Shown: in pieces, positions 12,931 to 42,155 of the stretch
Layout of the letters: each line of letters starts with the position of its first letter
Position numbering within the stretch: the stretch's first letter is position 1
IMG/VR virus record: IMGVR_UViG_2684623061_000003
Location: 2,999-66,998 of that record
Reading direction: 5' to 3' (one strand)
Source of the DNA: a virus
Lineage: Duplodnaviria > Caudoviricetes
DNA length: 64,000 nucleotides
Notes under the pieces: generated by a model
Databases searched by the model: none
The model's input: only the letters and a program-made list of their open reading frames with translations
What the model was told of the DNA's origin: nothing
Position numbers and translations under genes: made by a program

Positions 12931-12977
12931 CCGGTTTTGACCTAGCCTAGTCGGCATGCTGATCGCGGCGTGCCGGG
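12931..12977 (+). repeat. 47-bp direct repeat, copy 1 (putative late-promoter region)
   Basis: ccggttttgacctagcctagtcggcatgctgatcgcggcgtgccggg; 43/47 identical to 13730-13776. Confidence 0.9.
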
Positions 12978-13225
12978 AACCAATCGCGAAGTTCGGCAGA
13001 GACTAGAGTCAGGCCGTAAGCCTTAAAGCGTCCACTAAATCCATACGGCCATTTATGCGAAAGCGTCTCGAAACTGAGCATCACTTGCGACAGGCTTTCA
13101 CTCTCAACGGTAACGTTCGTGGCCTCGGGCATTCGAGCGAGAGCAAACATAGCTAAGTCTCGAAGGGGATCTGTGTGGCTTTGTCGGCCGGAAGCCCTCT
13201 CAACTATTACGACATGTTTCAACAT
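12947..13225 (-). CDS. Small hypothetical protein, paralog of 13328-13582
   Basis: MLKHVVIV...LAMFALARMPEATNVTVE...LSFET...YGL...DWF. Confidence 0.7.
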   Translation of the reverse strand: MLKHVVIVERASGRQSHTDPLRDLAMFALARMPEATNVTVESESLSQVMLSFETLSHKWPYGFSGRFKAYGLTLVSAELRDWFPARRDQHAD

Positions 13226-13327
13226 GAGCAGAACCTCTGAGCTATCGATCCGTAACAATGTCATGCATTGATTCGCGATCAATAGACGACCAAGAATTCC
13301 TTACGCCCAAGAAGACATCTCGTTGCG

Positions 13328-13582
13328 CTACGACAACCAATCAACACGTCGCGTGGCAGTTGATTTCAGCCCAAAGGATGCAAGTTGGTCGATGAGGCCT
13401 GATAGAGCCACTGACCCGTCGGTCTCGAATGTCAACTCCGCCTCCGACTTCGTTTGGCGCTCGATACTGACATTCCTGATACCGGGGACACGATCAAGGG
13501 CTATCCGCGCTAACTCACCAATCGGCACCGCTCGCAGCAATCCCGAGGTCGGCTTAACAACGGCAACTAGATGCTTTGTCAT
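13328..13582 (-). CDS. Small hypothetical protein, paralog of 12947-13225
   Basis: MTKHLVAV...LARIALDRVPGIRNVSIE...LTFET...FGL...DWL; GGAG RBS. Confidence 0.7.
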   Translation of the reverse strand: MTKHLVAVVKPTSGLLRAVPIGELARIALDRVPGIRNVSIERQTKSEAELTFETDGSVALSGLIDQLASFGLKSTATRRVDWLS

Positions 13583-13729
13583 GAGAAACGGGCTCCGACA
13601 TGACAGCCATCATTGTCCTCCCAATGCGATACGTTGGAGGACCGCTAATCCGCAAAATCAGACCGCCAACGCCATTCATAGCGGAACCGGCGCACTCCCT
13701 CAATCCTGCCTCTGGAGGCCGAAGTGACT

Positions 13730-13776
13730 CCGGTTTTACCCTAGCCTAGTCGGCATGCTGATCGCGGTGTGTCGGG
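13730..13776 (+). repeat. 47-bp direct repeat, copy 2
   Basis: ccggttttaccctagcctagtcggcatgctgatcgcggtgtgtcggg. Confidence 0.9.
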
Positions 13777-13848
13777 CCGAATAGAACCTTGCCAGTTTCG
13801 CTTGCTGTTCAACACGATCCTTCGCCATTGTCACCGGACGACGGCAGG

Positions 13849-14703
13849 CTAGAAGTCCACGCATAGCGGCTGGCTGCCATGCTTGAACGGAGGAGCCTGG
13901 GCGAAGTGAGCCTGAAACAGGCTCTCTGCTTTCTTCTCGGCAGTCATCGTCTCGGCGGACGAGAGATTTTTAGCCAGCTGCGCCAGCACCGCCTGGAGTT
14001 CGGCCTTCTCCTCGCCAAGCGCACCGAGTTCTAGAAGTTTTACATAGCGATAATAGAGCGCCGGGTCCGGCGGCGGCATATAGGTGAAAGTACTTCCTGC
14101 CATCCGAGGGCTGTTAACGCCCGCCGCCAACGACACCATGCGCCAATCGCCTGCAGCTAAGCCCCTTTCAATCAGAACGGGAACAAGCTGGCGATAATTA
14201 GCATCATCCGGAGGCGGGACGCCGTGCCGCCGAGAGCGGACCCCACCGTGTCCGTAGCACGCCGCCGCTGCCATGTTTCCGCTGCGCGCAAGATCAGCAA
14301 GGAACTCGTCCACTGGGGCCGTGCGCGCAGCCGGATCGGTCGAGCATTGCCTCTCGGCCTTCTCAAAGTTACGACGCTGGACTTCCGACAGGGTGCTTAG
14401 CGGGTCACCCGATGTAGCTTGGGCCTGGATGGCAGCCGTCTCTCGAAAGAAGTCAGCCCTTTTGCAGGCGAAGGCCGCGTTGAGGATCCTGCGCTTCCGC
14501 TCGACATCTATGCTGCCGCTAAGGACTTGTACGCTGCGTTCGTCGGGGATTACGGCTTGATCTGGGCTGGTCCTTAAGTCCTGAGAAGTAGCGTGCTTTG
14601 CTGCCGGCGACTGGGTGTTTTCGGCTACAAGTCGGTCACTCATTCCGAAGACCAACAGGGCTAAACCAATCACAACAAACAGAACTGCGGTCCACTTACG
14701 CAC
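13849..14703 (-). CDS. Membrane-anchored or secreted hypothetical protein (helical, SEL1-like C-terminus)
   Basis: N-terminal hydrophobic segment MRKWTAVLFVVIGLALLVFG; AGGA RBS. Confidence 0.65.
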   Translation of the reverse strand: MRKWTAVLFVVIGLALLVFGMSDRLVAENTQSPAAKHATSQDLRTSPDQAVIPDERSVQVLSGSIDVERKRRILNAAFACKRADFFRETAAIQAQATSGDPLSTLSEVQRRNFEKAERQCSTDPAARTAPVDEFLADLARSGNMAAAACYGHGGVRSRRHGVPPPDDANYRQLVPVLIERGLAAGDWRMVSLAAGVNSPRMAGSTFTYMPPPDPALYYRYVKLLELGALGEEKAELQAVLAQLAKNLSSAETMTAEKKAESLFQAHFAQAPPFKHGSQPLCVDF

Positions 14704-14939
14704 GACTGCATCGTCCTAATGAGAGGCTGACCACGACGGCCTTCCTTGTTCTGATCCCGTCGTCGTACTCCATACCCATCGCCTGCTCCCTGCATCGTTG
14801 ATTTGGGTCTTAGCTTATCTCGCAACGTCGTCGTCACACAGGCCGCACGTGCGGCGCGCATTTTGGCCGCAACCGCGCCCCTCTCGACAGACCGCGGCCC
14901 ACGTCGGCCCGCACGTCGCGCCAGTCGGCCTGAAATCGC

Positions 14940-14995
14940 GGGTCCTTCCCCTAGCACAAATCGAGCGGGGGGCCAAGCCGCAAAACCCCGCTAGC
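14940..14995 (+). other. Putative lambda-like cos site (cosQ-like GGGTCCT followed by G-rich cosN-like segment)
   Basis: gggtccttccctagcacaaatcgagcggggggccaagccgc resembles lambda GGGTCCT...GGGCGGCGACCTCGCG; phage has a gpA-type terminase. Confidence 0.55.
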
Positions 14996-15053
14996 GTCGA
15001 TCCTTTCATTCGGGTTTGCAGTCCCTGCAACCCGGTTCGCATTCGGACCTCCC

Positions 15054-16379
15054 TTGAGCCTTCAGATCGAACAGCGCCCGATCGAGGCGCTCATTCCATT
15101 TGCGCGGAACGCACGAACGCACTCCGACGCGCAGGTCGCGCAGATTGCCGCCAGCATCGTGGAGTTCGGCTGGACCAATCCGATCCTGGTCGATGGAACC
15201 AGCGGCATCATCGCCGGCCACGGTCGATTGCTTGCCGCACGCCAACTCGGACTTGCGCAAGTGCCGGTGATCGAACTGGCACACCTAACCCCGGCACAGA
15301 AACGCGCCTACGTCATCGCCGATAATCGGTTGGCTGAGAATGCTGGTTGGGACGAGGAACTGCTGAAGCTGGAGTTGGCCGAGCTTCGCGACGCGGAGTT
15401 CGATCTGGACCTGCTCGGCTTCACCGAAGACGAACTGGACGATCTGCTGATCGATGACCACTCCGGTCTAACCGATGATGACGAGGTGCCGGAGCCGACC
15501 GATCATCCGGTTTCGCGCCCCGGTGACGTCTGGATCTGTGGTGGCCACAAGGTGCTGTGCGGCGATGCCACCAGCAGCGACGATTACGCCGCCCTGCTCG
15601 GCGATGAGCTGGTGGACATGACGTTCACTGATCCGCCTTACAACGTCGATTATTCCAACAACCCCAAGGACAAGCTGCGCGGCAAGCACCGCCCAATCCT
15701 CAACGACAACTTGGGCTCCGACTTCGGCGCATTCCTACACGCCGCCTGCCAACAGATCCTGACGGCGACCAAGGGTGCCGTCTACATGGCTATGTCGTCG
15801 TCAGAACTGGACCGTCTGCAGGAAGCCTTCCGCGCAGCTGGCGGTCGCTGGTCCACCTTCATCATCTGGGCCAAAAACAAGTTCACGATGGGCCATGCCG
15901 ATTATCAGCGGCAGTACGAGCCGATCCTCTACGGGTGGCGGGACGGCAACGACCGGTTTTGGTGCGGCGCGCGCGACCAAGGCGACGTTTGGTTCATTGA
16001 CCGAACCAGCAAAAACGACCTCCATCCGACCATGAAGCCGGTCGCGCTGGTCGAGCGGGCAATCCGCAACAGCAGCAAGACCCGCGATCTGATCCTCGAT
16101 CCGTTCGGTGGATCAGGCACGACGATGATCGCTTGCGAGAAGACTGGCCGTCGGGCCCGGCTGATGGAGTTGGACCCAAAGTACGTCGATGTAGTCGTTC
16201 GACGCTGGCAGGACCATAGCGGACAAGCTGCGATGCGCTCCATTGATGGTCGAACATTTGACGAACTTGCGGCAAAACCCACTCCCGAGGGAGTAGAACG
16301 GACCTGTGGGGTCGGGGGGCTCACAGGTCGGTCCACCATGTCTACCGGCATCATCGAGTGTGAAGCCCCTCCGCCTTAA
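15054..16379 (+). CDS. ParB-like N-domain fused to N6/N4 DNA methyltransferase
   Basis: NARTHS..Q...IAASI.EFGW.NPIL, GHGR, IADNRL; TDPPYN; HPTMKP; LDPFGGSGTT. Confidence 0.92.
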   Translation: MSLQIEQRPIEALIPFARNARTHSDAQVAQIAASIVEFGWTNPILVDGTSGIIAGHGRLLAARQLGLAQVPVIELAHLTPAQKRAYVIADNRLAENAGWDEELLKLELAELRDAEFDLDLLGFTEDELDDLLIDDHSGLTDDDEVPEPTDHPVSRPGDVWICGGHKVLCGDATSSDDYAALLGDELVDMTFTDPPYNVDYSNNPKDKLRGKHRPILNDNLGSDFGAFLHAACQQILTATKGAVYMAMSSSELDRLQEAFRAAGGRWSTFIIWAKNKFTMGHADYQRQYEPILYGWRDGNDRFWCGARDQGDVWFIDRTSKNDLHPTMKPVALVERAIRNSSKTRDLILDPFGGSGTTMIACEKTGRRARLMELDPKYVDVVVRRWQDHSGQAAMRSIDGRTFDELAAKPTPEGVERTCGVGGLTGRSTMSTGIIECEAPPP

Positions 16380-16387
16380 CAGCGGGC

Positions 16388-17356
16388 CTACCAAGAAGGA
16401 TTGTTGGGCCATTTGGCGGGCCTTGTATCCGGGCACCTGCTATCCGTCGGGCTTAGCGAGGGGTCTGCTTGACCAGCCAAGATGGGGCCCTTGCTCTCAG
16501 AAGGTCCGGTGGGACCACTGGTCATACCGCTGGCACCGAAGAAGTCGACATTGAACCGTTCAAGGAGGGTCAGTGCTCCGCGCTCTCCCCACTGAACATG
16601 AGTTCCATACCACGGCTGCTGCGTAATATCGACCGGGGGCTGATTGCCCACGTCGAAACGAATGCCGTACTTCGCTTCGTCTTGTATCGGTGGAAAGTCG
16701 CTGCGCCAATGGCCAGGCGCAGGCACATTCACGTGCGTTCCCTTCCCGACAAAGACAACAGGACGGCCGTTCTCGTTTGGAGCATCGGCCCAGGAACGTT
16801 CGATCGTCGATTTGCTATGGGCGCTATAACGAACTGCTGTGGGCTGTAAGTTGTCATCGAGCTGGAGGGTGATCTTCTCCCAGTCACCCTCATGATTCTG
16901 TACATCGCCTGCTCCCGGCGATCCATCGTTGTACGAATAGAAGAAGTGATAGGTCAGGGTGTTGCTCTCTGCGTCGTATTGGTAAAGATTCTTGCTATTC
17001 TTCAAGTCTCCATCGCGGGCATAGTCCAGGTTCTCGTCATCATGGTCGAGAAACTTTGGAGTCTCCGACCTATCATTGGCAGGGCCAATTTCTAGCAAGT
17101 CTTCCGCGGTTACTTTGCCCTTTCCGCTTAGCGTCCCATCCTCCATGTAGTGCTTGTCTTCGCGCAAGCTTGACTGGTCGATGAAGGTGTTCGGATCTTG
17201 CAGGAAATTCTCTTCCATCGGATGAAAGTAGAGGATCGGGGCGTAGCGCTCTGCAAGCTCCTGCTGCTGAATCGGCGTGAGTGCCGGCGGCCCGGGGGGC
17301 TCCGGCAAAGGTGACATAGGCAGCCGAGACGGTCCCGGAATATCGGACGGATACAT
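16388..17356 (-). CDS. Vps62-related protein (HEGDWE motif), cargo gene
   Basis: LAERYAPILYFHP.E, YHFFYSYN, NHEGDWE.I...L, YSAH, RPVVFVGKGTH; GGAGAG RBS. Confidence 0.7.
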   Translation of the reverse strand: MYPSDIPGPSRLPMSPLPEPPGPPALTPIQQQELAERYAPILYFHPMEENFLQDPNTFIDQSSLREDKHYMEDGTLSGKGKVTAEDLLEIGPANDRSETPKFLDHDDENLDYARDGDLKNSKNLYQYDAESNTLTYHFFYSYNDGSPGAGDVQNHEGDWEKITLQLDDNLQPTAVRYSAHSKSTIERSWADAPNENGRPVVFVGKGTHVNVPAPGHWRSDFPPIQDEAKYGIRFDVGNQPPVDITQQPWYGTHVQWGERGALTLLERFNVDFFGASGMTSGPTGPSESKGPILAGQADPSLSPTDSRCPDTRPAKWPNNPSW

Positions 17357-17641
17357 GATTGCTCTCCATTGCGGCGAAGATTCGCCACCTAGAAGCGTAC
17401 TCAAGTGAGTGAATAGAGGTATTCGTGGTGACCCTAGAGTGCGTTGACCAATTTCTGTGTGGACGGTCTATATCTCGTAGCACATTCAGCGTAGTGGTGA
17501 TCCAATTCAACATCACATAGTGGTCTGCGTCATAGCGCATTGTACTGACCATAAATCAATCACGATTGCTAACTCCATCGCGGCCGAAGGCGGATTCCTA
17601 TATCGAGACGCAGCCAACCGCAATCAAAGCTGCCTGTTGCT

Positions 17642-17987
17642 CGGTGTGCGCGATATGGGCGACGCCTGGTTAGTCGACCGCACCAGCAAGAACGACCTTC
17701 ACCCGACCATGAAGCCAGTGGCGTTGGTCGAACGGGCGATCCGCAATAGCAGCAAGAGTCGCGATCTCATCCTCGATCCGTTCGGCGGTTCGGGCACGAC
17801 GATGATCGCCTGCAAGAAGACCGCCCGCCGCGCGCGCCTGATAGAACTGGACCCGAAGTACGCGGACGTGATCGTCCGGCGCTGGCAAGATCACACCGGC
17901 CAAGCGGCCACCAGGCAATCGGATGGCGTCCTATTCGAGCATGCAGCGCGCGATGCTGAGGCCGAAGCAAAGGCCGCGCTCGCATGA
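17642..17987 (+). pseudogene. Stranded duplicate 3-prime end of the N6/N4 methyltransferase gene
   Basis: RTSKNDLHPTMKPVALVERAIRNSSK...LDPFGGSGTT...RRWQDH near-identical in protein to 15965-16270; its TGA overlaps the next ATG. Confidence 0.9.
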
Positions 17988-18959
17988 CCCGGCCGCTTAC
18001 TACAACGAAATTGATCCCTACCTTTGCGGTTGGCTGCGCAATCTCATTGCGGCCGACCTGATTCTCCCTGGCGACGTCGATGACCGAGACATTCGATCTG
18101 TTCGCGCAGACGACCTGCGCGGCTACGGCCAGTGCCACTTCTTCGCCGGCATCGGCGGCTTCGCCTACGCCTGCCGACTCGCGGGCTGGCCGGATGACGA
18201 GCCGGTCTGGACGCTGGCTTCCCCTGCCAGCCGTTCAGCGTTGCAGGCCGCCAGCGCGCGCAAGCGGACGACCGCCACCTCTGGCCGGAACTGCGCCGCC
18301 TTATTGCATCGGCGCGCCCCTCTCTATTCGTGGCCGAGAACGTTGCTGGCCTCGTCGCGCTGGGCCTCGACGGAGTTCTTGCTGACCTGGAGGCTGAAGG
18401 CTACGCCAGCCGGGCGATTGTTGTTCCAGCTTGCACCGTCGACGCCCCGCACCGACGCGACCGGGTTTGGATCGTCGGTAGCCGTTTGGCCGACCGCGAC
18501 GGCGAACGACCCCGAGAAGCGAGGCGACTTTGCGGCCGAACGACGCAATGGCCTGCCTGGGGTAGCGAAGGCGGTGTGGAGCACGCTCGGGCGAGCGACG
18601 GCGAGAAGGGCGGGCCGAATCAACAGTTCGGCAGTGGGTCGACCCGACCGCTGACGGCGCAGGCGGTCTGGGCGACACCGACGGTGCGCGATCACAAAGA
18701 CGCATCGAGCATTGGCAGCGCACCGGAGAATGGGATGCTTGGCAGACAAGTCAAACCCTCGCCGGTCGCCGGGTATCTCAATCCGAAATTCGTCTTCTGG
18801 CTGATGGGATATCCGCCCGAATTCCTAAGCTGCGCGCCGCCGGCAATGCGATTGTCCCGCAGGTCGCCGCCGAAATCCTCCGCGCCCTGCGGGGCTGACG
18901 TCGCGCACGTGCGCGACGTCAAGACGTTGGTTCAGCCCACTACGGCAAGTCCCACGTAG
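17984..18959 (+). pseudogene. C5 cytosine methyltransferase with an overlapping alternative-frame subunit; three apparent 1-nt deletions
   Basis: HFFAGIGG (frame 1), GFPCQPFS and ENV (frame 3), GNAIVPQVA (frame 2); alternative frame carries WPTAT/WATPT repeats and LNPKF..WLMGYP. Confidence 0.8.
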
Positions 18960-19258
18960 CGGGCGTAGTTGTAGCCCTCGGGTCGGACATACAAAGTCGG
19001 ACGGCCCGGCGCTTCGCATCGAACTTCGAGCACCTCATTGCATATGCCGTCGAAGGCGGCCAGCCAGTCGCGGTCGCGCAGCAGCTGCCTTGCAAAGGCG
19101 TCGTATTCTTCGGCAGTTAGTTGCTTGACCGCGACGACCAGCGCCATCTCGGCGCGGATGTTGAGGTGGCTCAGCTCCCGATGGACCCAAGACAGGCTCT
19201 CGGCCTTGCGCACAAATCTGACCATCAGGTTGCGGGGCGTAACGGTCGTGGTGGTCAC
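18932..19258 (-). CDS. Small phage protein (DUF6329-like)
   Basis: EEYDAF...LL.DRDWL...LYVRPEGYNYARYVG; downstream of motif copy 1. Confidence 0.7.
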   Translation of the reverse strand: MTTTTVTPRNLMVRFVRKAESLSWVHRELSHLNIRAEMALVVAVKQLTAEEYDAFARQLLRDRDWLAAFDGICNEVLEVRCEAPGRPTLYVRPEGYNYARYVGLAVVG

Positions 19259-19285
19259 TGCGGTCTTCCTTGGTGGGCGTGCGGG

Positions 19286-19316
19286 CATGAACGCTTCAAT
19301 CTCAGCAGAAGCCAAG
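19286..19316 (-). promoter_or_regulatory. 31-bp motif copy 1 (cTTGGCTTC-N10-GAAGCGTTCATG)
   Basis: Plus strand catgaacgcttc aatctcagca gaagccaag. Confidence 0.8.
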
Positions 19317-19427
19317 TCATTCATCGCGGAAATGCGCGAAATTTCGACCTCGTTAAGGTGCCGGACAAGAACGAACTTTCTCCCTCCCGCAACGCGGCCG
19401 GGCGAAGCGCCCAGCCGCTCGCGTTCC

Positions 19428-20069
19428 TCATTCTTCCTCGTCGGCGGCGCCTTCGGCCGCGGTCGCCATCTCCTCGGTCTTTATGCGGTACGCGCGGTCT
19501 GCCTTGCCCTCCTTATTGCTGATCAGCTCATAGCCCTTCTTCTTCAGCGCGCCGGCAAAGAAGCCGCGCACCGAGTGCTGCTGCCAGTCGGTTGCGGCCA
19601 TCACCTGGGCAATGGTCACGCCTTCGGGACGCATCAACAGCGTGACCACTTGGTCGACACGGGTTTCCTTGCGCTTGGACGGCGCTGCTGCGGCGACCGG
19701 ACCAGCGTCCGCCGAGTCGCCAGCACTAGCCGCTCGCTCGCCGCTGTCCACGACACCGTTGTCCGTATCGCCCACGTCATCGTTGGCATCGGCATTGTCG
19801 TTGTTGACGATGTCGCTGCCGGTGACTCCGTCAAAGCCGACCCCAACCCTGTCGGGGTCTTCCGGGGGCTGGTGGCCCACGGCCTCGTAACCGGCGTCGG
19901 TCAGGATGTGACCAGCTCCTGCGGCGACGATGAAGCCGTTGTGCAGTAGACCGCGCACCACCGCCGTGCGCGCACCGCCGCCGAGGTTCTTCGGATAGTT
20001 CTCGATGCGACCCGCGGTCTCAATCGCGAGAAGGATCAGGGCGCGCTGGCTGTCGGTAAGCTTGTTCAT
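19428..20069 (-). CDS. DUF3489-like winged-helix protein
   Basis: VVTLLMRPEGVTIAQVMAATDWQQHSVRGFFAGALKKKG...RAYRI. Confidence 0.85.
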   Translation of the reverse strand: MNKLTDSQRALILLAIETAGRIENYPKNLGGGARTAVVRGLLHNGFIVAAGAGHILTDAGYEAVGHQPPEDPDRVGVGFDGVTGSDIVNNDNADANDDVGDTDNGVVDSGERAASAGDSADAGPVAAAAPSKRKETRVDQVVTLLMRPEGVTIAQVMAATDWQQHSVRGFFAGALKKKGYELISNKEGKADRAYRIKTEEMATAAEGAADEEE

Positions 20070-20140
20070 TACAGATTCCTTGGTAAGTGGTGGGTGTATT
20101 CGAGTGAGCGCGCCCCGTCGATTCGGGGCGCGCGGATGGT

Positions 20141-20371
20141 TCAGCCGGTGAGGATTTCGCCGATGGCTTTGCGGACATCGACCTCACCTTCGGCGATGGA
20201 GTGGATCACGTCGTCTGGGAGCTTTTGGAGGAAGAAGGTCGCGCGGCGTTCGATCTCGCGCTGGGCTACCTCTGTCCAGTCCGTCAGCACCGTGAGTTGG
20301 GCCAGCGCCGAGGGGGTGCCCGTCTTCATTCCGCGTAAGAAGTCCTTCAGGATTTGCGTTCCGTCTTGCAT
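20141..20371 (-). CDS. Small hypothetical protein
   Basis: GGAGG RBS before ATG 20371; downstream of motif copy 2; followed by hairpin gcgcgccccg/cggggcgcgc. Confidence 0.65.
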   Translation of the reverse strand: MQDGTQILKDFLRGMKTGTPSALAQLTVLTDWTEVAQREIERRATFFLQKLPDDVIHSIAEGEVDVRKAIGEILTG

Positions 20372-20404
20372 GTCTGGCCTCCGTGGCCGTCGTTGGTGTG
20401 GCGA

Positions 20405-20435
20405 CATGAACGCTTCCTTCGCCGACGAAGCCAAG
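20405..20435 (-). promoter_or_regulatory. 31-bp motif copy 2
   Basis: catgaacgcttc cttcgccgac gaagccaag. Confidence 0.8.
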
Positions 20436-20554
20436 CGAATGCAGCGATAAAGAACTATCGTGCTCAAACATAGACAGGTGTCGGACAGCTGCGCCGAACA
20501 GGAACGAAAACGCCCCCGCTTGGGGGCGTATGTGTTGTGCTTCGGAGAGTGAGT

Positions 20555-20944
20555 TCAGGCGATACGGCGTTGCCGGATGGCGGTCGGAATGAGCAAATCG
20601 CAGGCCTTTCGCTCAGTCCAGTGGTATGCGAGCGGCTCGATCTCCGGGATAGGCAAGGTGACCACGGTTTCAGCGCGCTGGTCGAGCGACCACTCGCTGG
20701 CTTCGCCTTCGCCGAGCCAAACGCCGCCCAGCATCGTATGTCGCTCCGGGGTAAGCGCGTCCACGTGGCTGCCGTTGGCCGCGCGTACCGCCGCCGCGTA
20801 GCCTGCTAAGTAGGCGGCGGTCAGCGCGGCGTCGATACCCCACACCGAAACGCTATGGAAGTCCAGGCTATCGCTGCCGCGGGTCTCGAGTATCGCTACA
20901 TCCAAGTGCTGCTGCGCGATGGTAGTGAGCGTCTTCTTATTCAT
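20555..20944 (-). CDS. DUF6900-like protein
   Basis: IAQQHL.V..LETRGSDSLDFHSVSVWGI.AAL.AAY.AG; GGAGG RBS. Confidence 0.8.
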   Translation of the reverse strand: MNKKTLTTIAQQHLDVAILETRGSDSLDFHSVSVWGIDAALTAAYLAGYAAAVRAANGSHVDALTPERHTMLGGVWLGEGEASEWSLDQRAETVVTLPIPEIEPLAYHWTERKACDLLIPTAIRQRRIA

Positions 20945-20978
20945 GACAGCCTCCGTGGCCGTGCGTGTTGGGTGCACG

Positions 20979-21009
20979 CATGAACGCTTCCGTTTCGCCG
21001 GAAGCCAAG
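20979..21009 (-). promoter_or_regulatory. 31-bp motif copy 3
   Basis: catgaacgcttc cgtttcgccg gaagccaag. Confidence 0.8.
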
Positions 21010-21129
21010 CGAACCCGTCGCCATATCCGGGCATCCACCGTCGCCAGACAACCGCCGTACAGCTGAGGCCGTGTGATTCTCTGGTAACTAAACAGAACGG
21101 GGGAATGGTCATTCTTCTTCCAATATCCA

Positions 21130-21160
21130 CTTGGCTTCCCGACCGAAGGAAGCGTTCATG
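21130..21160 (+). promoter_or_regulatory. 31-bp motif copy 4
   Basis: cttggcttc ccgaccgaag gaagcgttcatg. Confidence 0.8.
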
Positions 21161-21187
21161 TCGGTGCCGCGACGACGCGGTGAATCC

Positions 21188-22299: not shown

Positions 22300-22362
22300 A
22301 CGCAGACGGTCTATGCGAAGCTGTCGGGGACCTGTCTGCTGGTGCAAATGCGACGTCATGCT

Positions 22363-24072: not shown

Positions 24073-24075
24073 TTC

Positions 24076-33658: not shown

Positions 33659-34044
33659 TCGCTCTGAAAGTCTGGGCCACGACACTACTGGCCGCACTTG
33701 CCGCCGTGTTGGCTGCCTTCGGCTGGGGACGTTGGAAAGGCGCGCAGCGTGCGCACGCTGACGCCCGTGAACGCATCGCCGAGAGCGAGCGACAGGTTCG
33801 TATCGCCGTGCGCGAGCGCGCCGATTCCGAAACCCGCACCGAGGTAGACACCGATGTCCTGCATCTTCCGACCGGCGTCTTGGCGCCGGTGGCGAGCGCT
33901 GTACCTAATTCCGCTGCTGAGCGCTTGTACGACGAATGGTCCCGTGACGGAGGCGACGACGGGTTGCGCCTGGACGCGCCCGATTCTGGTGTCCCGGCAG
34001 GATCAACTGACGGATCTGACCGCGCGCCAGATCCTGGCGCATAA
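33655..34044 (+). CDS. i-spanin (Rz-like)
   Basis: N-terminal TM helix plus coiled coil, after endolysin. Confidence 0.7.
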   Translation: MIALKVWATTLLAALAAVLAAFGWGRWKGAQRAHADARERIAESERQVRIAVRERADSETRTEVDTDVLHLPTGVLAPVASAVPNSAAERLYDEWSRDGGDDGLRLDAPDSGVPAGSTDGSDRAPDPGA

Positions 34045-34096
34045 CGAAACCGGCCGGCGCTTGTGTGGCTGGTCTCCGACCAAGTTATCGCGCTGA
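33854..34096 (+). CDS. o-spanin lipoprotein (Rz1-like), overlapping frame
   Basis: Lipobox LLSAC; C.W..PI...D.LT..TA.QILAHN. Confidence 0.75.
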   Translation: MSCIFRPASWRRWRALYLIPLLSACTTNGPVTEATTGCAWTRPILVSRQDQLTDLTARQILAHNETGRRLCGWSPTKLSR

Positions 34097-34119
34097 GGTG
34101 GTAGCGGCTTCGCTCGGTG

Positions 34120-34650
34120 CTACGGGCCGTTGGACAGGTTGAGAGAGGCTCTTATAGCCGACGGACTATCCGTGAACAGATTCGGTCGACCGTATATCTT
34201 TCCGAATCTACGGCGGACGGCATCAGGAAACTGTTCTTCTGCCTCCATCCAAGCAGAATTCGGCAACACCACGAATGCCAGCGTGTCGGACCCATCGGAA
34301 TCGACACACCAGCGAATCTCATGCTCGGGATGCAGAATCCTGTTGAGTGTGACCAGCGCATGATGGCGATCGGCTACGTCGCCAACTAAGGGTACCTGTT
34401 CGCGGCGATCAAACAACGAAATATACATTTCGTAGCCGAGTTCACTTCCGCACTCGACCACTTCGCTGTGTAGCGATCCCGTCCGAAGGATGCTCTCTAC
34501 GTACAGGACGATGTCCTGCTCGTCTTCCCTCCAGTCCACCCAGAACACACACGGCTGACCCTCATCGACGAACTCGTCGTCCACGATGGCCTGATAAGCA
34601 TCTTCGGCGTCGGTGACCTGCAGCAGCGTCAGTACGGTCGCAGGCAGCAT
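34120..34650 (-). CDS. Acidic hypothetical protein, possible orphan immunity protein
   Basis: FWVDWREDEQDIV, DS.GSDTLAF; antisense to phage late genes; GGAG RBS. Confidence 0.6.
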   Translation of the reverse strand: MLPATVLTLLQVTDAEDAYQAIVDDEFVDEGQPCVFWVDWREDEQDIVLYVESILRTGSLHSEVVECGSELGYEMYISLFDRREQVPLVGDVADRHHALVTLNRILHPEHEIRWCVDSDGSDTLAFVVLPNSAWMEAEEQFPDAVRRRFGKIYGRPNLFTDSPSAIRASLNLSNGP

Positions 34651-34772
34651 CAGCACGCTCCATAGCGGGGTTCGTTCCCATCTTAGCGCGATGCGGCGTG
34701 GCTGGCGTCGCCCCTTTTTTTCTTACTGCCCGCCACGGCCTATTCACGGTCGGGGCCCATTTTGCGTGCGCT

Positions 34773-37700
34773 ATGCCCACCACCCGCGACACCACGATCA
34801 CGCTGCTGATCAAGGCCAACGCTGCACAACTCAATCAGGCGCTGGACCAAGCGGGGGTGCGTGCCCGCTTGTTCGGGAATGAAGCGCAAAGCGCGGGCCG
34901 GCGGGCTGAGCGGGGCTTTGACCAAACCCGCAGCAGCGTTGAGGCGATCGGTCATCAGCTCTCGCAGGCTAAGGCGCAGTTGTTGGCGTTCGTCGGGCTG
35001 CAAAGCGTCGGAACCGCCGTAGGCGGTTTGGTGCGCGCGGCCGATGGCTACGCCAACCTGTCGGCGAAGATCAAGCTCGCGACGACCTCGCAGGCAGCGT
35101 TCAATCTGGCCGAGGAGGCGGTGTTCGCGATCTCGCAGCGCACCTCGACCGCGTTGGATTCGACCGCCACGCTGTTCGGGCGCCTGACCAGCGCGCTCAA
35201 GGATCAAGGCGGGTCGCAGCGCGAAGTGCTGGGCCTGACCGAGACGATCAACAAGGCGCTGGCCGTGTCCGGCGCCACGGCGGCCGAGACTTCGTCGGTC
35301 ATCGTCCAGTTGAGCCAGGCTTTCGCGGCCGGCCGGCTCAGCGGTGACGAGTTCAACTCGATCAACGACGCCGGGCCGCGCCTGATGCAGGCGCTCGCGA
35401 AGAGCATGGGCGTCACCGTCGGTGAACTCAAAGCCCTGGCGGAGGCCGGCAAGCTGACCAGCGAGCAGTTGCGCGTCGCGTTCTCCGGCGAGCAGGCTTC
35501 GAGGATCGCGGCGGAATTCTCGCAGCTGCCGCTCACCATCGAGCGCAGCCTGGTCCAGCTCGACAACGCGTTTACGCGCTTCGTCGGGCAACAGGACCGG
35601 ACGATGGGCGTATCCACTGCCGTCGCTGGGGCGATCCAAGGGCTGTCGCAAAACTTCGACGGACTGGCGAACGTGGTGGGCGTCATCGCCATTGCCGCGC
35701 TGGGCCGGTTGATCGCCATGCTGACCACGGCCGGCGCGGCGAAGGTCGTCAATCTGCGGCAGACGCGGCAGTTGACGCAGGAGGAATTGGCGCAGGCACG
35801 CGCGGCCGAAGGGGCGGCGCAGGCGGAACTCGCGCGAGCGCGAGCGCTGGCCACTGCGGGCCTCGGCGCAGGGCGTGTCGTCGCGGCCGAGGCGGAGTTG
35901 GCAGCCGCGCAGGCCCGGACCACCGCCGCGACGCAGGCGGCTACGGCCGCTGCCGGCGCGAAGGCAGTCGCGATCCGTGGGCTGTCCTCGGTGCTGACCC
36001 TTATGGGCGGGCCGCTCGGCCTTGCGATCACGGGTGTCACGTTGTTGGCCGGCGCCTTTGCCAGCGCCAGCGCCAACGCCGCGGCAGCGAAGGTCGAGTT
36101 CGAATCCACAATCAAGGCGGCCCAGCGCTTTCGTGAACAGCAAGACCTGGACATCGGCGTCGATCTGGGCAAGCGGCTGATCGATCAGCGCCAGCAACTG
36201 CAGAAGGAACTCAGCAACCTCCAAGCGATTAGACAGCCTTTGGGTCCGTTCTACGGCGGCATCCACGACAGTCCGGGCCAAAGCGGCATGCGGTGGCTGT
36301 GGGGCGGCGACGTGGATGCCGAGATCAAGCGTGTTCAAGCTCATCTGGCCACGACCAAACAAGCGCTCGGTCAAGTCCAGGGCTCGGTCGCCGATTTGCG
36401 CCAAGCGCAGGCGACCGGCGGGCGAACCCGCGTCCAGGTGACTAAGGACGCGACCGAGTTCACCAAGGCGCTCAACACCCAAAACGAATCGCTCAAGGTC
36501 GAGCGTATCGAGCGCGAGAAGGGCTTGCGCGCCGCGCTGGAGTACCAAGCGGTCAAAGCTGCGGGCGTCAAGGATACGGCGCAGTTGACGGCAGCGATGC
36601 GTCAGGCCATCGATGTGCAGGTCCGCGAACGCGAGGCTGCGAAGGCGATGATGGACGCAGGGCGGGCGCAGACCAAAGCCATCCGCGACGCCGAGCGCCA
36701 GCGCAAGGCCGACGAACGAAAGCTGGAAGCCGACAGGAAGGCGCAAGAGGCGGCTGCGGCGAAGGCAGCTAGGGACGATGGGGCTCTGGACCGCGTCGTC
36801 CAGGAGGCGGACGTCGCGCTGATGCGTAACCGCGGCGAAGGCGCGGCGGCTCGCCGAAGGGAGCTGGATCTTGAGTTCAAGCAGGCGCTGGCCGATCTAC
36901 AGACCAAGGGCAATACCGCCGATGCGCTGAAGATACGCCTGCGGATCGATACCGAGGTCGCGAAGGTCGAACTGGATGATCTGCAGGCGCAGGTCGAACG
37001 CGTATTTGGCGAGCAGTCCCGTCAGGAACAATCGATCCAGGCGCGACAGCAGGCCAGCTTGCTGACCGAAGTCGGCGCGCGCCGGGAACTGATGGACCTG
37101 CATGCCCGCACCGCGGCCGAAGTTGGCCAGTTGCTTCCGACGCTGGAGGCGGTTGCGGCCAAGACCGGCGCGCCCGAGTCGATCGAGCGCGTCAAAGACC
37201 TGACCGCGCAGGTTGCCGCGCTCAAAGTGCAGTCCAACGAGCTTGTGGTTACGCTGACCAACGGCTTCGAGAGCGGCCTGAGCAATGCATTGGAAGGATT
37301 GGCCACGGGAACGCTGACCTTGCGCCAGGCATTGACCGGCCTGGTGCAGGACATGGCGCGTTCGATGGCGCAGTTGGCGTCGCAGCAGCTGGCTGCCTTC
37401 GCGACAGCGAAGTTGGTGTCGATGCTCAGCAAGGCGGCCGGCGGCAAAGGCGCTCCGGACCTGGCGCAGCCCGACCCGGTGCAAGCCGGACAGGCAGGTG
37501 CGGCTTACGCGCTGCCGATCACGGGTGCATCGGTCGCTCTGGGAGTGGCGGGCAAGGTGGTGAAGGATGCGGCGGTCGCGATGCAGACCGCTGCCGCAAC
37601 CTTGCTGGTTGCCAATGCAACAAAGTCAGCGACTGGATTCGCTGGAGGTGGCTTTACCGGCATCGGCCCGAAGTACGCCCCCGCCGGTGTGGTACACCGC

Positions 37701-38042
37701 GGCGAGTTCGTTCATCGGCGCGAGGTCGTGCGGCAGCCCGGTGCGCGGCCCTTCCTGGAACGGTTCAACCGTCTGGGCATGGCCGCGCTCGACGGGTTGC
37801 GCGGATACGCTACCGGCGGATTTGTCAGCCCCGCGCCCCACGCGCCAACACCGGCACGTGGCCCCATGACCGAACGACCAGGGCGTTCGGCGGACAGCGA
37901 AGGCGGGCGATCGCAGATCACCAACGTTCTGTACCTCGATCCGCGAGAGATCGTCAACGTCATGGGCACCCACGCCGGCCGGCAGGTAATCCTGTCCACT
38001 ATCCGAGCCAATGCACCGACGGTTCGTCAGGATCTGACATAA
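34773..38042 (+). CDS. Tail tape measure protein
   Basis: Tape-measure N-domain (QLSQAFAAGRLSGDEFNSI), Ala-rich coils, C-terminal FAGGGFTG...PAGVVHRGEFV. Confidence 0.93.
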   Translation: MPTTRDTTITLLIKANAAQLNQALDQAGVRARLFGNEAQSAGRRAERGFDQTRSSVEAIGHQLSQAKAQLLAFVGLQSVGTAVGGLVRAADGYANLSAKIKLATTSQAAFNLAEEAVFAISQRTSTALDSTATLFGRLTSALKDQGGSQREVLGLTETINKALAVSGATAAETSSVIVQLSQAFAAGRLSGDEFNSINDAGPRLMQALAKSMGVTVGELKALAEAGKLTSEQLRVAFSGEQASRIAAEFSQLPLTIERSLVQLDNAFTRFVGQQDRTMGVSTAVAGAIQGLSQNFDGLANVVGVIAIAALGRLIAMLTTAGAAKVVNLRQTRQLTQEELAQARAAEGAAQAELARARALATAGLGAGRVVAAEAELAAAQARTTAATQAATAAAGAKAVAIRGLSSVLTLMGGPLGLAITGVTLLAGAFASASANAAAAKVEFESTIKAAQRFREQQDLDIGVDLGKRLIDQRQQLQKELSNLQAIRQPLGPFYGGIHDSPGQSGMRWLWGGDVDAEIKRVQAHLATTKQALGQVQGSVADLRQAQATGGRTRVQVTKDATEFTKALNTQNESLKVERIEREKGLRAALEYQAVKAAGVKDTAQLTAAMRQAIDVQVREREAAKAMMDAGRAQTKAIRDAERQRKADERKLEADRKAQEAAAAKAARDDGALDRVVQEADVALMRNRGEGAAARRRELDLEFKQALADLQTKGNTADALKIRLRIDTEVAKVELDDLQAQVERVFGEQSRQEQSIQARQQASLLTEVGARRELMDLHARTAAEVGQLLPTLEAVAAKTGAPESIERVKDLTAQVAALKVQSNELVVTLTNGFESGLSNALEGLATGTLTLRQALTGLVQDMARSMAQLASQQLAAFATAKLVSMLSKAAGGKGAPDLAQPDPVQAGQAGAAYALPITGASVALGVAGKVVKDAAVAMQTAAATLLVANATKSATGFAGGGFTGIGPKYAPAGVVHRGEFVHRREVVRQPGARPFLERFNRLGMAALDGLRGYATGGFVSPAPHAPTPARGPMTERPGRSADSEGGRSQITNVLYLDPREIVNVMGTHAGRQVILSTIRANAPTVRQDLT

Positions 38043-38436
38043 AGTGGCCGGTGCATTTCAAAAAGTACGCTTGCGTTACGGTTCTTAGAATGGCCCAAGG
38101 GCACTAAGGAACTGCAAGACAGCCTGAGCTTCGAGTCTCAGCGCAGGACGCTCCGATTCTCGAGGTCCATTAGTCGAAGCCGCAGCTGGCGCCTACTTCA
38201 ACGAATTTGAGTTCATTTGCCGTTTGCCACGTCGCAGACGCTCTATTCGTAAAGAAACTACTGCACGCAGAAACTAAGGAAGCCAGCATCTACTTTCACC
38301 ACAGCTAATGCACAAAACGTCTGCTTCCATTTGTGGTCGATGCCCCCGCCGGCATGTTCGAATACTTACGGAAGATGGCCGCCTTGCGCTGTCCGCACCG
38401 TTCCAACCGTGGAGGACTGTCAAAAGAGGGTCAATT

Positions 38437-39093
38437 ATGAACGGCTTCATGAAGAATGCGGTCATTCTCGCTTTTCTGGCAATCGGCATCTCAACCTCCA
38501 AGGCTCAGTCCTGTCGATGGGATGGAACAGCCCCCTTCTGCGACGGCGAGTGCGCTGCCGGAGAAGAAGAAATCACGCGACTATCGACTTGGCCAGGACA
38601 TTGGACGGGAGCTGTGTCCAGCCCTGCAGTGAATCACTTCGGCAGTGCTTGTGTTACAGGATCGAAGGCACTGTGCTGCGGAACGGGTCGCGCGGCGTCC
38701 CGGCTAGTGCTAGCTCCAGTGATATTGAGTGGTGCAAACAAGTGCCTTGATGTACATGCGCCCGATCAAAGGAGTAATGGCGCAAGAGTACAGGTGTGGG
38801 ATTGCAACAACTCGCTCCAGCAGACCTGGAAGGTCGAGGCGGGAACAATTAAGAGCGGCGCGGGGAAGTGCCTGGACGTCCATGTATTTGACCAGCATCA
38901 GAACGGCGCAAAAGTCCAAGTATGGGATTGCAACGGTTCGCAACAGCAACGCTGGACAGTTGTCGGTCGTACCATAAGGAGCGGTGCTGGCAAATGCCTG
39001 GATGTGCATGCTCCTGACCAGTACAACAACGGAGCCAAGGTTCAGGTCTGGGATTGCAACGACACAATCCAGCAGACGTGGACTGCACCTTGA
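38437..39093 (+). CDS. Secreted protein: Cys-rich WDGTAPFC domain plus ricin-B (QxW)3 lectin
   Basis: Signal peptide; three ~40-aa repeats SGA.KCLDVH..DQ..NGAKVQVWDCN...QQ.W. Confidence 0.85.
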   Translation: MNGFMKNAVILAFLAIGISTSKAQSCRWDGTAPFCDGECAAGEEEITRLSTWPGHWTGAVSSPAVNHFGSACVTGSKALCCGTGRAASRLVLAPVILSGANKCLDVHAPDQRSNGARVQVWDCNNSLQQTWKVEAGTIKSGAGKCLDVHVFDQHQNGAKVQVWDCNGSQQQRWTVVGRTIRSGAGKCLDVHAPDQYNNGAKVQVWDCNDTIQQTWTAP

Positions 39094-39412
39094 TTTCGAC
39101 ATTCCATTAGCCGGGGGGCGCGTTGCTGGCGCGTCCCCCTTTCTATTTGGAGCAAGCGCTCGGTTCCGCGACGTCCGATGCGGCTGCCGAGCGACTCAGC
39201 CATTTGCATTCCTGGCAATGTGCCGCATGCCCCACATTTCCTCTTCCTCAAGCGACTGATAGTTTGAGCATAAGGTCTGCGCCTCCCCAGGACGCTGCAC
39301 CCCACGCGACCGGAGCACACGTCGGTCGCGTTTTCATTCATAGATAAATCGCTTCCCAATGAACCGCATCAGTCTGACTTGGGCTAAACGGTTGATCGAG
39401 GTTGCCTAGAAC

Positions 39413-39478
39413 GGCCGACAAGTGAACTTGTCCACGATTCGGACCAATGCGGCGACCGTTCGTCAGGACTTAGGCTAA
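39413..39478 (+). pseudogene. Stranded duplicate of the last 66 nt of the tape measure gene
   Basis: GRQVNLSTIRTNAATVRQDLG* vs GRQVILSTIRANAPTVRQDLT* (37977-38042), colinear, 17/21 aa identical. Confidence 0.85.
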
Positions 39479-39518
39479 CCGTCTCAGTTAACGCGACGGT
39501 CGATCCCGATACTGCCTC

Positions 39519-39587
39519 CGGCGGTGGTGACCCCCCCTGTTCTCTCCTGCCATGCGCGCCCGGCCCCCCGCCGGGCGCGCTTCTTTA
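39519..39587 (+). ncRNA. Candidate small RNA with C-rich tract and GC terminator hairpin
   Basis: ggcggtggtgaccccccctgttctctcc...gcgcgcccgg-cccccc-gccgggcgcgc-ttcttt; related element at 40452-40525. Confidence 0.4.
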
Positions 39588-39815
39588 TGTGCCTATGACC
39601 CTGGCATCGGCACCGACTACGGGCGGTTGGAAGCGTCGGAGCACTCTAGTGAGACTTTCCGCAACGGAAGTCCATTGCGACGGTGACATCTTGTATTCAC
39701 GATCTTCTCCTACCGACCGCAGAGGCTTGTGTCGTTACGGCGAGAAATTCATGATGAGATGCGGCTTCCAATCCGCGAAGGCCGCTACTCCCCAGTGAAA
39801 AACAGGACGTATTTC

Positions 39816-40385
39816 ATGAAAAGAATGAATGCTCTGGCCACGACCCTGCTTGTCGCTTTCCTGGCGGCTCCACTCGCCGCTCAGGCTGCCGATCCGGTTA
39901 TGGCTATTGTGAATAAAGCGGCCGACAAATGCATCGATAGGAGTTTGGATATCCCCCAAGACCCTAACGCAGTGCATGCACAGTTATGGTCATGCGGCGG
40001 AAATCGACCATATACCACGCCCCCCAACCAAATCCTTACCTTTGAATGGGTGGGGCGATTTGGCGGAGGTCCTTGGGAAACCTATCGACTTCACTCTGGC
40101 ACCTCGTTGTCCGGGTCGTGTTTGAGCGTTGAGAATAATTCCCTGCTCAATGGGGCGAAGCTCTCCTTTAGTCCATGCGTTGCCGGCGATAGAAGCCAGA
40201 TGTGGATGCGTGCAGCTGAGAACAAAGACCTAGTAACCTCCGCCAAATGGGTCAACCTCAACAGCGGAAAGTGCATCGATGCGAACGCCCCTTACAATGG
40301 GGTGAGACTTCAGCAGTATGACTGCGCGCGCGATAGCTGGGGACCGCAGGACTTCCAGGCGTACTACACGACATCTCCTTTCTAG
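39816..40385 (+). CDS. Secreted ricin-B (beta-trefoil) lectin-like protein
   Basis: Signal peptide ending AQA; KCID, QLWSC, CLSV, SQMW, NLNSGKCID, LQQYDC. Confidence 0.8.
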   Translation: MKRMNALATTLLVAFLAAPLAAQAADPVMAIVNKAADKCIDRSLDIPQDPNAVHAQLWSCGGNRPYTTPPNQILTFEWVGRFGGGPWETYRLHSGTSLSGSCLSVENNSLLNGAKLSFSPCVAGDRSQMWMRAAENKDLVTSAKWVNLNSGKCIDANAPYNGVRLQQYDCARDSWGPQDFQAYYTTSPF

Positions 40386-40498
40386 TCCGCGAACCATCGC
40401 AAAAAGTAGGCTTGATGAGTGGTGTATGGCCCTGATGAACGACAAGGCCTGTGACGTGGTGAGCCCGAGATGGGTTAACCGCTTCTTCGTCATCCATG

Positions 40499-40525
40499 TG
40501 CCCGGCGCTGACCGGGCATTTTTTT
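40499..40525 (+). terminator. Intrinsic terminator
   Basis: tgcccgg-cgctga-ccgggca followed by T7. Confidence 0.75.
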
Positions 40526-40577
40526 GCGCCCTCTTTTTTTCAACCTGCCCGGCAGCATGGGGCCTTTGTTTATACGT

Positions 40578-42155
40578 ATGACTTTGCGAACCGGCGTCGC
40601 CAGCGACCATTACGATTTCCTCCATCAACTCGAGACCGCTCTGTGCAGCGAAGGCCACGCTTGGGGGCTGCTCCATGCCGGCGCCGGCAACGGCACGCTA
40701 ACCGGAGCCGATGGCGCGGCCGGCGGCTACCGCGGCGGGTTTGGCTCAGTCGCTGAGGCATTCACCCTGACCGCGCTGGATGCCGAGCGCTTTCAGGTGG
40801 TCGGCGCGCTAGCCGGCGACCTGGGCGTCGCCATCATCGGCCGGCCCTTCGAGCACGAGCGGTTGCGTTTCCGCATCAATGCGGGCTCGGCCCCCTTCGT
40901 AGCCGGCGATCGCTTCACCCTGAACACCTCGCCGGCCTGGACGCTGGTGCGCCGCTACGGCTGCCGCAACACCAGCTTCCGAACGACAAACTTGACCAAC
41001 CCGGCGTCGGTGTTCGACAACCGTGTGGACAGCTGGGGCAGCCGGCCGGTGGCCGATCTGCCGGCGCAGGCCACGATCGAGATGATCGGACCGACCTCCG
41101 TTAAAGCGGTGACACTCGGCATCGGCGACAGCGGCGCGCGTGGCCCAGCCGCCTTCGAACTGCAGCGCTCCGACGACGGCGCGGCTTGGGGGCGGGTGCA
41201 GGCATGGGTCAGCCAGACGTGGCCCACGGCGAAGATGCGCCGCAGCTACCCGGTGTCCGGTACTGTACCTGCGGCTCGCTACTGGCGCGTCGTCATCACC
41301 GCCACGGCCGGCGCCGATCCGCTGGAGATCAATGACGTCAGCTTCCACGCCGATCTCAACGCCGACTTCGAGCTTGAGGACCGCGCGCAGTGGATCGTGC
41401 AGGCGCCGGGGCTGGACGGGCAAAAGGCCATCTTCATAGGCGCCGAACTGTATGAAGACTCGGCGCGAGCCGCGTACAACCTCAACTGGTACGGCTTTAG
41501 ATCGCACAACCCGCTGCGCAGCCTTCGCACCCAGGTCAACGTTAGCGGGCTTCGTTGCCTGCCGTTGCGCTACGGCCCGTTCGCCTACTGGCTGGCGATC
41601 AATGGCCAGCGGGTCCTCATCGTCGCCCGGGTCGGCACGGTCTACGTCAGTGCCTATTTGGGCTACATCAACGCCTATGAGCCCCCGTCGCTTCATGAGT
41701 ACCCCCTCGCGATCGGTGCGTGCGGGTCCACTGAGACGCTGACGCCGGATGCGACGGATGCCAACTTCCGCAGCTTCTTTGATCCCGGTCGGTATGGCTT
41801 GGTGGTGAAGTATCCGGACAACGTTTGGCGTATACACGCCAACCGCTACGCCTCCGGAGCGAATGAATACGGCGACAGCGAAACGCCGGGCAAGGTCTAC
41901 CCGAGCGCGATGTCCACCTCGGGCGATCGCGCGTACTTGCGCGAGAACCTCGACGGTTCCTCGCCGGTGCTTCCCCTGATCCTCGGCAGCTCCAATCCGC
42001 GGCATTCGCTGGGCGAGTTCGACGGCTGCGGCTGGACCACGGGCTTCAGTACCGCGTCTGAGTCCCGCATCGACCAGGACGGTTCGGCCTGGATGGCGTT
42101 CCAGAACGCGTTTCGCATCTCACCCGACAACTACTTTGCCTTGAAGCTGGACTGA
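40578..42155 (+). CDS. Virion structural (tail tip) protein, D3112-like; internal discoidin-like domain
   Basis: Position after TMP; FVAGDRFT, FELQRSDDG..W, ARYWRV, LGEFDG. Confidence 0.7.
   Translation: MTLRTGVASDHYDFLHQLETALCSEGHAWGLLHAGAGNGTLTGADGAAGGYRGGFGSVAEAFTLTALDAERFQVVGALAGDLGVAIIGRPFEHERLRFRINAGSAPFVAGDRFTLNTSPAWTLVRRYGCRNTSFRTTNLTNPASVFDNRVDSWGSRPVADLPAQATIEMIGPTSVKAVTLGIGDSGARGPAAFELQRSDDGAAWGRVQAWVSQTWPTAKMRRSYPVSGTVPAARYWRVVITATAGADPLEINDVSFHADLNADFELEDRAQWIVQAPGLDGQKAIFIGAELYEDSARAAYNLNWYGFRSHNPLRSLRTQVNVSGLRCLPLRYGPFAYWLAINGQRVLIVARVGTVYVSAYLGYINAYEPPSLHEYPLAIGACGSTETLTPDATDANFRSFFDPGRYGLVVKYPDNVWRIHANRYASGANEYGDSETPGKVYPSAMSTSGDRAYLRENLDGSSPVLPLILGSSNPRHSLGEFDGCGWTTGFSTASESRIDQDGSAWMAFQNAFRISPDNYFALKLD

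Follow-up and report, generated by a model that had tools for sequence, protein, structure and literature searches.

Phage morons and mosaic joints are a concept of Hendrix and Juhala, and the uptake of cargo by temperate phages is mostly deduced from clean mosaics in which the event itself has left no mark. We describe a Lysobacter temperate siphophage in which traces are retained, at four sites of a 64,000-nt window (positions 2,999 to 66,998 of the IMG/VR provirus record IMGVR_UViG_2684623061_000003, which has 66,998 bases) where cargo genes stand between diverged copies of the adjoining phage sequence. These are, from left to right, a short boundary element around two small paralogs (site 1), the 3′ end of a DNA methyltransferase (MTase) gene around a Vps62-like gene (site 2), the end of the tape measure (TMP) gene around a first lectin gene (site 3) and a degenerate copy of the following tail junction ahead of a second lectin gene (site 4).

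The closest described counterparts are toxin-immunity arrays, Vibrio type VI secretion system (T6SS) effector ends and rhs loci, for which Kirchberger 2017 (PMC5361080), citing de Vries & Wackernagel 2002 and Jackson 2009, proposes the same displacement route that we consider below. The window resembles the rhs, contact-dependent inhibition (CDI) and T6SS arrays treated there in its one-sided homologous anchor, with the other end apparently joined without homology, and in that the incoming gene end would take over while the old 3′ end is shifted downstream, where it can stack in arrays. Unlike in those arrays, the anchors are ordinary backbone genes (MTase, tape measure, tail gene) at prophage cargo hot spots, pairing would have occurred at ~81-87% identity, and immunity genes play no part. 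The sites are also like morons, with extra low-GC genes between genes that are adjacent in relatives, apparent terminators of their own, and exchange between diverged relatives. Unlike morons, they keep scars, either a homeologous gene-end remnant or a whole fossil junction, which point to a homeologous and an illegitimate joint in one event. Parts of De Paepe 2014 (PMC3945230) treat relaxed homologous recombination in phage mosaicism and summarise the debate, and a passage of PMC5928155 reports that Sak4 of HK620 anneals oligonucleotides up to 20% diverged. Our searches of a limited literature collection returned no account of morons that have displaced homeologous gene ends at their flanks.

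We propose that the duplicates are probably scars left when related Lysobacter prophages, or a phage and a defective relative, underwent homology-facilitated illegitimate recombination with displacement of a 3′ end. The pattern is a known kind of process and not a dedicated cargo-capture device, and the cargo is ordinary accessory material, namely two secreted Ricin-B-type lectins and a Vps62-like protein.

Parentage of the methyltransferase copies

The window was compared with related Lysobacter prophages (13 loci from IMG/VR and 11 loci from six Lysobacter genomes); megablast of a phage record collection returned no close relative, just 75% matches to Ralstonia phage MTases and 35-nt chance matches. 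The repeats that the first-pass annotation reported at sites 1 to 3 lie where it placed them, far above chance, and the window as a whole contains only 13 families of direct repeats of 40 nt or longer, these three solid pairs among them. At site 2 the copies (15965-16231 and 17642-17908) are identical at 215/267 positions (81%; self-BLAST E 4.4e-66), with protein similarity extending to ~16275 and ~17950. Which copy is ancestral could be checked at this site alone, with an empty-site relative, G006, which has an uninterrupted MTase and is itself ~98% identical to the window on both sides.

Mismatches between the window and G006 number 18/736 over 14983-15718 and 72/513 over 15719-16231, with a change point at 15719 (support 15695-15740) that was equalled by 0/1000 shuffles. 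To the right of it, 64 of the 72 mismatches are third codon positions, and the start of the foreign tract precedes the left end of the repeat (15965) by ~246 nt. When both copies are compared with G006 across one 233-nt stretch, the upstream copy differs at 39 positions (~83% identical) and the downstream remnant at 5 (~98%). Apart from a fuzzy first 12-34 nt, the remnant shows 7 mismatches in 312 nt to G006; it is 94.3% identical to that relative over 264 nt, and the best relative of the upstream copy reaches 86%. Of the positions that 19 relatives conserve, one is altered in the upstream copy and five are altered in the remnant, four of the latter within its first 11 codons, and the tail of the foreign allele past ~16275 (the last ~35 codons) resembles no relative. 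Since the remnant is far closer to G006 and keeps the native tail, stop codon and ATGA junction, the comparison indicates that it is the resident MTase allele and that the upstream gene is a chimera whose 3′ part was imported with the cargo.

The two copies differ at 52 positions, distributed 6/7/39 over the three codon positions and altering 12/88 residues, and this third-position excess argues that both diverged as working genes and are not an in-place duplicate. A tandem duplication of the gene end in place, followed by slow divergence and an independent arrival of cargo, is therefore hard to reconcile with site 2, where in addition one copy is ~98% and the other ~83% identical to G006; we consider this account extremely unlikely, although one feature of site 3, given below, is in its favour.

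Under displacement, the incoming DNA would be a homeologous piece of a backbone gene adjoining foreign cargo. A homeologous crossover on one side would pair this piece with the resident gene (near 15719 at site 2), and its other end would be joined without homology slightly further along the resident gene, as an illegitimate join (near 17641). At site 2, a linear piece would thus replace ~246 nt of the recipient and leave the recipient 3′ end behind, so that the incoming gene end would become the working one and the resident end would be pushed downstream as a remnant still bearing its old junction to the next gene. Two marks of such displacement were found: a parentage switch within the homologous anchor on one side, at site 2 only, and a resident gene end kept downstream, as the MTase remnant (17642-17987) and the TMP remnant (39412-39478). 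At the right joint of the imported tract, similarity to G006 starts abruptly at 17641-17675, if slightly fuzzily.

The geometry described in the first-pass annotation, with the upstream gene intact, the backbone junction retained by the downstream copy, homeologous copies and a recurrent pattern, was borne out. Its explanation, single-crossover integration of a small circle, fits less well. In this Campbell-type process, a circle carrying cargo and a homeologous gene end would enter by one crossover inside the gene end, possibly via Sak4, and the repeats could permit excision. The product topology is the same as that of displacement, direct homeologous repeats bracket the cargo at three sites as they would flank an integrated circle, no recombinase is encoded in the cargo, and the phage has a Sak4-like annealase and a Cas4-type exonuclease. 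However, a Campbell crossover must lie in the repeat and would make both copies reciprocal hybrids, whereas at site 2 the switch at ~15719 lies outside the repeat, to its left, the upstream copy is of the foreign type over its whole length, and the downstream copy is resident-type from its left end onwards; the process is therefore not supported there. It would further need either a longer circle followed by loss of ~250 nt or an exchange that came earlier and separately; exact identity between repeat copies extends over at most 17, 11 and 28 nt. No circle or cargo-less form was present in one public rhizosphere metagenome run, which was itself uninformative (6% of sampled words; short contigs of relatives, none bridging the cargo). 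Altogether we regard circle integration as very unlikely.

The nearest homologs found for the cargo of site 2 lie apart from the prophage matches. Copies of the Vps62-like gene with 69% nucleotide identity occur in Lysobacter genomes, on contigs other than those with prophage MTase matches and with no clear window-phage gene within ~8 kb; in tblastx comparisons of two such loci with the window, long high-identity matches were confined to the Vps62-like gene, the others being noisy, short and of low identity. The gene has no relative in IMG/VR (0), and none of 18 metagenome loci with Vps62-like relatives (up to 61% amino acid identity) carries any of 8 window backbone proteins tested. This location of the nearest homologs agrees with one-step replicative template switching, in which a broken or stalled phage replication end would copy a related MTase allele and then the cargo, and return upstream of its exit point, making insertion and duplication together. 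Also in keeping with it are three joints around a 1.9-kb patch (~15719, ~16275 and 17641-17675) and the fuzzy 12-34 nt at the right joint, which match neither parent. No sequence evidence separates it from two-step recombination, however, and we hold template switching to be unlikely.

In G006 and L015 the ATG of the second methyltransferase overlaps the MTase stop codon as ATGA. The window has a 1-nt deletion just past this ATG (17984-18000), so that the second methyltransferase opens solely from ATGs at 17923-17953, within the MTase remnant; the deletion is either a real start change or a sequencing error.

Fossil junction between the lectin genes

At site 3, the last nucleotides of the TMP gene recur downstream of lectin 1. 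The pair (37976-38032 and 39412-39468) is 79% identical over 57 nt, with 49/67 identical (73%) up to the stop codon, and falls below self-BLAST detection at E 1e-6; a profile of relatives' TMP ends matches 39408-39477 (nhmmer, E 1.1e-12). The match belongs to a longer fossil of an empty backbone junction, which comprises the last 22 TMP codons and stop (39412-39478), an intergenic region of the type found in L007 with its terminator (39554-39580), and ~19 nt of a tail-gene start (39595-39613), the ATG at 39595 occupying the place of the tail-gene start. The duplicated unit that the first-pass annotation saw around lectin 2 at site 4 was thus recovered in part: L007 has an empty TMP-to-tail junction to which 39412-39586 is 84.7% identical, but the unit is degenerate, with only those ~19 nt of tail-gene start left. 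A tail-start profile did not detect them (E 3.3), and junction interiors gave nothing below E 1.

The order along the DNA is tape measure, lectin 1 with terminator, structured element, fossil L007-type junction, lectin 2 with terminator, and tail gene. Unrelated cassettes stand on both sides of the fossil (39412-39586), a terminator-like hairpin accompanying each, and four such hairpins are stacked in the region. This order and the stacked hairpins suggest that this one genome has accumulated alternative junction alleles of the family. Such stacking at a fixed place, with older material pushed along, is like that of integron cassettes, unlike which the window has no integron integrase and no conserved structured attC-like site here. 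The two lectins are 26.5% identical to each other, and neither is carried by any of the other loci (0/23).

The structured element at 39183-39338 forms the whole TMP-to-tail spacer in L011 and is also present in L003, L012, L013 and L100. It is ~100-150 nt long with three predicted hairpins, the last being the terminator, and across 6 loci compensatory changes affect 3/25 predicted pairs. It may be a small RNA; an Rfam scan of 12000-42000 gave 0 matches at E up to 1.

One relative, G008, lacks a lectin yet has a structured element, a TMP-end remnant and an L007-type spacer in the same arrangement, and the profile start points differ by 2 nt. If the arrangement in the window and G008 is one old event, the repeat predates lectin 1. 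Tandem duplication in place draws its support from this common, lectin-less arrangement and from the near-identical profile starts. Against it, the window remnant block is 84.7% identical to the intact junction of L007 and only 68.6% to the G008 block, counter to simple common descent.

Boundary element and cargo hot spots in relatives

The site 1 pair (12928-12977 and 13727-13776) is identical at 45/50 positions (90%), with a 28-nt exact core (self-BLAST E 8.5e-12). Hypervariable DNA begins exactly at the right edge of the element in 7/7 phages compared, and the interval from the DUF6362 gene to the MTase gene holds different DNA in every relative. The small proteins encoded between the copies had been called paralogs, and they are (30% identity over 83 aa, E 3e-12); Atlas scores for the 84-aa protein reach only 0.81-0.83. 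Their family of small minus-strand genes also stands in tandem at the same position in L015, L017 and L018, so that the genes are not clearly foreign. To the right of element copy 2 lies a 284-aa minus-strand open reading frame (ORF; 13849-14703) that matches nothing in Pfam or PHROGs and has no nucleotide relative among the loci compared.

For site 1 only, the 50-nt element might be read as a site-specific recombination site with integron-like cassette swapping. The element is conserved across 7 phages and gives way abruptly to variable DNA on its right, it is restricted in IMG/VR to this phage group (5 exact matches on 4 contigs), and the window and G009 each have it in duplicate around different cargo, the G009 copies lying ~1.39 kb apart with other ORFs between. 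On the other hand, there is no recombinase nearby, the window having just the prophage-end serine integrase and an insertion sequence (IS) transposase (45888-47165); the repeats have different left edges in the window and in G009; conservation does not extend to the second hairpin; and the genes between the copies are a family that relatives also carry at this position. Such a site is highly improbable.

The first-pass annotation had also suggested a general route of cargo capture, and the relatives do not support this. At the MTase junction, the gene is uninterrupted at 21/21 relatives' sites and its end duplicated at 0/21, with other DNA before the next gene in L020, L114/L119 and L121. The TMP-to-tail spacer, measured in 24 loci including the window (23 relatives, or 21 after removal of two identical pairs), ranges from 30 to 2743 nt; it is 30-178 nt in 7/21 non-redundant relatives and 597-2743 nt in 14/21, where it is always low in GC and holds unrelated ORFs. 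Just 1/14 relatives with cargo at this junction has a remnant. Cargo at both junctions varies between relatives, and the same junctions are thus cargo hot spots, usually without duplication.

The scar geometry nonetheless recurs in the family, in G008, G009 and G006, though most cargo lacks it. In G008 the true TMP end (42816-42913) is followed by 12.45 kb and then by TMP-end remnants, the first 73% identical to its own TMP end (E 1.2e-19) and the second decayed (E 1e-3). In G006, a sequence present once in the window occurs as two 332-nt copies (95.5%) separated by 507 nt. Duplications that predate the cargo and are independent of it, which would count against the first-pass annotation, find partial support in the site 1 gene family of relatives and the site 3 arrangement of lectin-less G008. 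The cargo of G008 (L146:3715-14527), very large for a TMP-tail position, codes for large surface proteins, one of 2355 aa (domains DUF11, Cna-B-like, GEVED and OmpA) and another of 1258 aa.

Cargo in the window differs from backbone in base composition (GC 0.50-0.58 versus 0.62-0.72). The names given earlier to cargo and flanking genes hold, comprising the ParB_N and N6_N4 MTase, Vps62 (a weak match plus Atlas structure matches) and two Ricin-B lectins, and in agreement with the earlier description 0 cargo ORFs match an integrase or transposase in Pfam or PHROGs. Neither database assigns a role to the 284-aa ORF, to the small proteins of site 1 or to six ORFs in the cargo of relatives. Terminator-like hairpins lie 3′ of both lectins, and two scans each found 0 sigma-70-like promoters. 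Transposon or IS cassettes were rejected, as no cassette has a transposase and the repeats are 50-267 nt and homeologous; terminal inverted repeats were not searched for. An assembly artefact was likewise rejected, because independent records show the same types of junction and the differences between copies are gene-like. The coordinates of the features are collected in Table 1.

Table 1 Features of the window, with cargo sites and junctions first and recombination genes last.
Feature	Coordinates	Strand	Remarks
Boundary element copy 1: bidirectional terminator hairpin, then conserved 45-nt box	12913..12977	.	
Two small paralogous genes, 111 and 84 aa, low GC	12947..13582	-	no Pfam or PHROG match
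Boundary element copy 2, without left half of hairpin	13727..13776	.	
Chimeric ParB_N + N6/N4 DNA methyltransferase (MTase)	15054..16379	+	resident-type to ~15718, foreign allele from ~15719
Putative imported tract: homeologous MTase 3′ part (including repeat copy 15965-16231) and cargo	15719..17641	.	
Vps62-like cargo gene	16388..17404	-	Pfam PF06101, E 4e-5; Atlas features 0.95, TM 0.70-0.74
Apparent displaced 3′ remnant of resident MTase, native tail and stop codon retained	17642..17987	+	
Second DNA methyltransferase	17923..18654	+	
Tape measure gene, intact; last 67 nt are the upstream repeat copy	34698..38042	+	PHROG 339, E 8.5e-116
Lectin 1: signal peptide, Cys-rich region, Ricin-B trefoil	38437..39093	+	terminator-like hairpin 39113-39139
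Conserved structured non-coding element, terminator hairpin at end	39183..39338	+	no Rfam match
Fossil of empty backbone junction	39412..39613	+	84.7% to L007 over 176 nt
Lectin 2: signal peptide, Ricin-B domain	39816..40385	+	terminator-like hairpin 40498-40519
Intact tail gene	40578..42155	+	5′ 1.1 kb not G006-like; G006-like backbone resumes ~41700
Large serine integrase of prophage	364..1758	-	PHROG 95 integrase, E 3e-93
Sak4-like single-strand annealing protein	5594..6460	+	PHROG 124, E 2.6e-38
Cas4-domain exonuclease	8403..9149	+	PHROG 1990, E 2.8e-70

Weighing displacement in the context of the phage

Several observations weigh against displacement as the origin of the scars. A near-identical relative was found for site 2 only and none for sites 1, 3 and 4, and the donor, a foreign MTase allele beside a Vps62-like gene, was found neither in IMG/VR nor in the 18 metagenome loci. 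The switch at 15719 could stem from an earlier, separate exchange, and at the other joint the first 12-34 nt of the MTase remnant match neither parent well. The left edge of the cargo lies inside the last codons of the foreign MTase, which requires a further novel join somewhere in its history. Finally, most cargo in relatives has no remnant beside it, as would be expected if cargo normally entered by clean double homologous exchange and only rarely by the scarred route.

If displacement did act at the MTase gene, the same process would plausibly have made sites 1, 3 and 4, with pairing carried out by the phage Sak4-like annealase and Cas4-type exonuclease or by host enzymes. Of the recombination genes on which the first-pass annotation relied, the annealase and the exonuclease were confirmed, but its single-stranded DNA-binding protein (SSB) was not found in four ORFs tested. 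The remnants may survive because they retain start signals and terminators for the next gene. A stronger version, which we find distinctly unlikely, is that the family has a repeatable, junction-preserving way of adding cargo, in which the phage-encoded Sak4-like annealase and Cas4-type nuclease would pair the diverged gene end borne by incoming DNA, and in which the remnants are functional (the second-methyltransferase start region, and stacked terminators and a small RNA preceding the tail gene) and allow cargo to be shed or swapped by annealing between repeats.

Related prophages share hosts: one Lysobacter genome has 4 copies and two others have 2 each, so that recombination partners are common and at hand. 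Loci L105, L107, L108 and L109 are related prophage tail loci of one Lysobacter genome, 3 of them within ~140 kb on a single contig.

The large serine integrase of the prophage (364..1758) lies outside every cargo cassette, and the window also encodes a primase, a RuvC-like resolvase and tail genes. An HNH endonuclease gene (7970-8410; PF13392, E 9.5e-9) stands amid the replication and recombination genes. Further along, a ~50-nt leader (CTTGGCTTC ... GAAGCGTTCATG) occurs in six copies, at 19268, 20387 and 20961 on the minus strand and at 21131, 22364 and 22798 on the plus strand. Each copy ends in the start codon of a small gene, the six genes forming two diverging sets, and the leader, which is also present in relatives, folds as a small hairpin over the ribosome-binding site. 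Among the tail genes is an IS-like segment of ~1.5 kb (45624-47109) with a minus-strand transposase gene (45888-47165; PHROG 2199, E 1.6e-61); it is missing from G006 and G008, both of which are continuous across the site. Two RHS-repeat proteins of 1589 and 1529 aa are encoded on the minus strand at 51865-62988, with small ORFs between them. This region lies past the end of the G006 record (window ~50231) and is probably host DNA or a terminal cargo region.

With its 98%-identical empty-site relative, site 2 bears directly on the debate over homologous versus illegitimate recombination in phage mosaicism. Lysobacter strains with several related prophages are a workable system for measuring the route and for testing the role of the Sak4-like protein.

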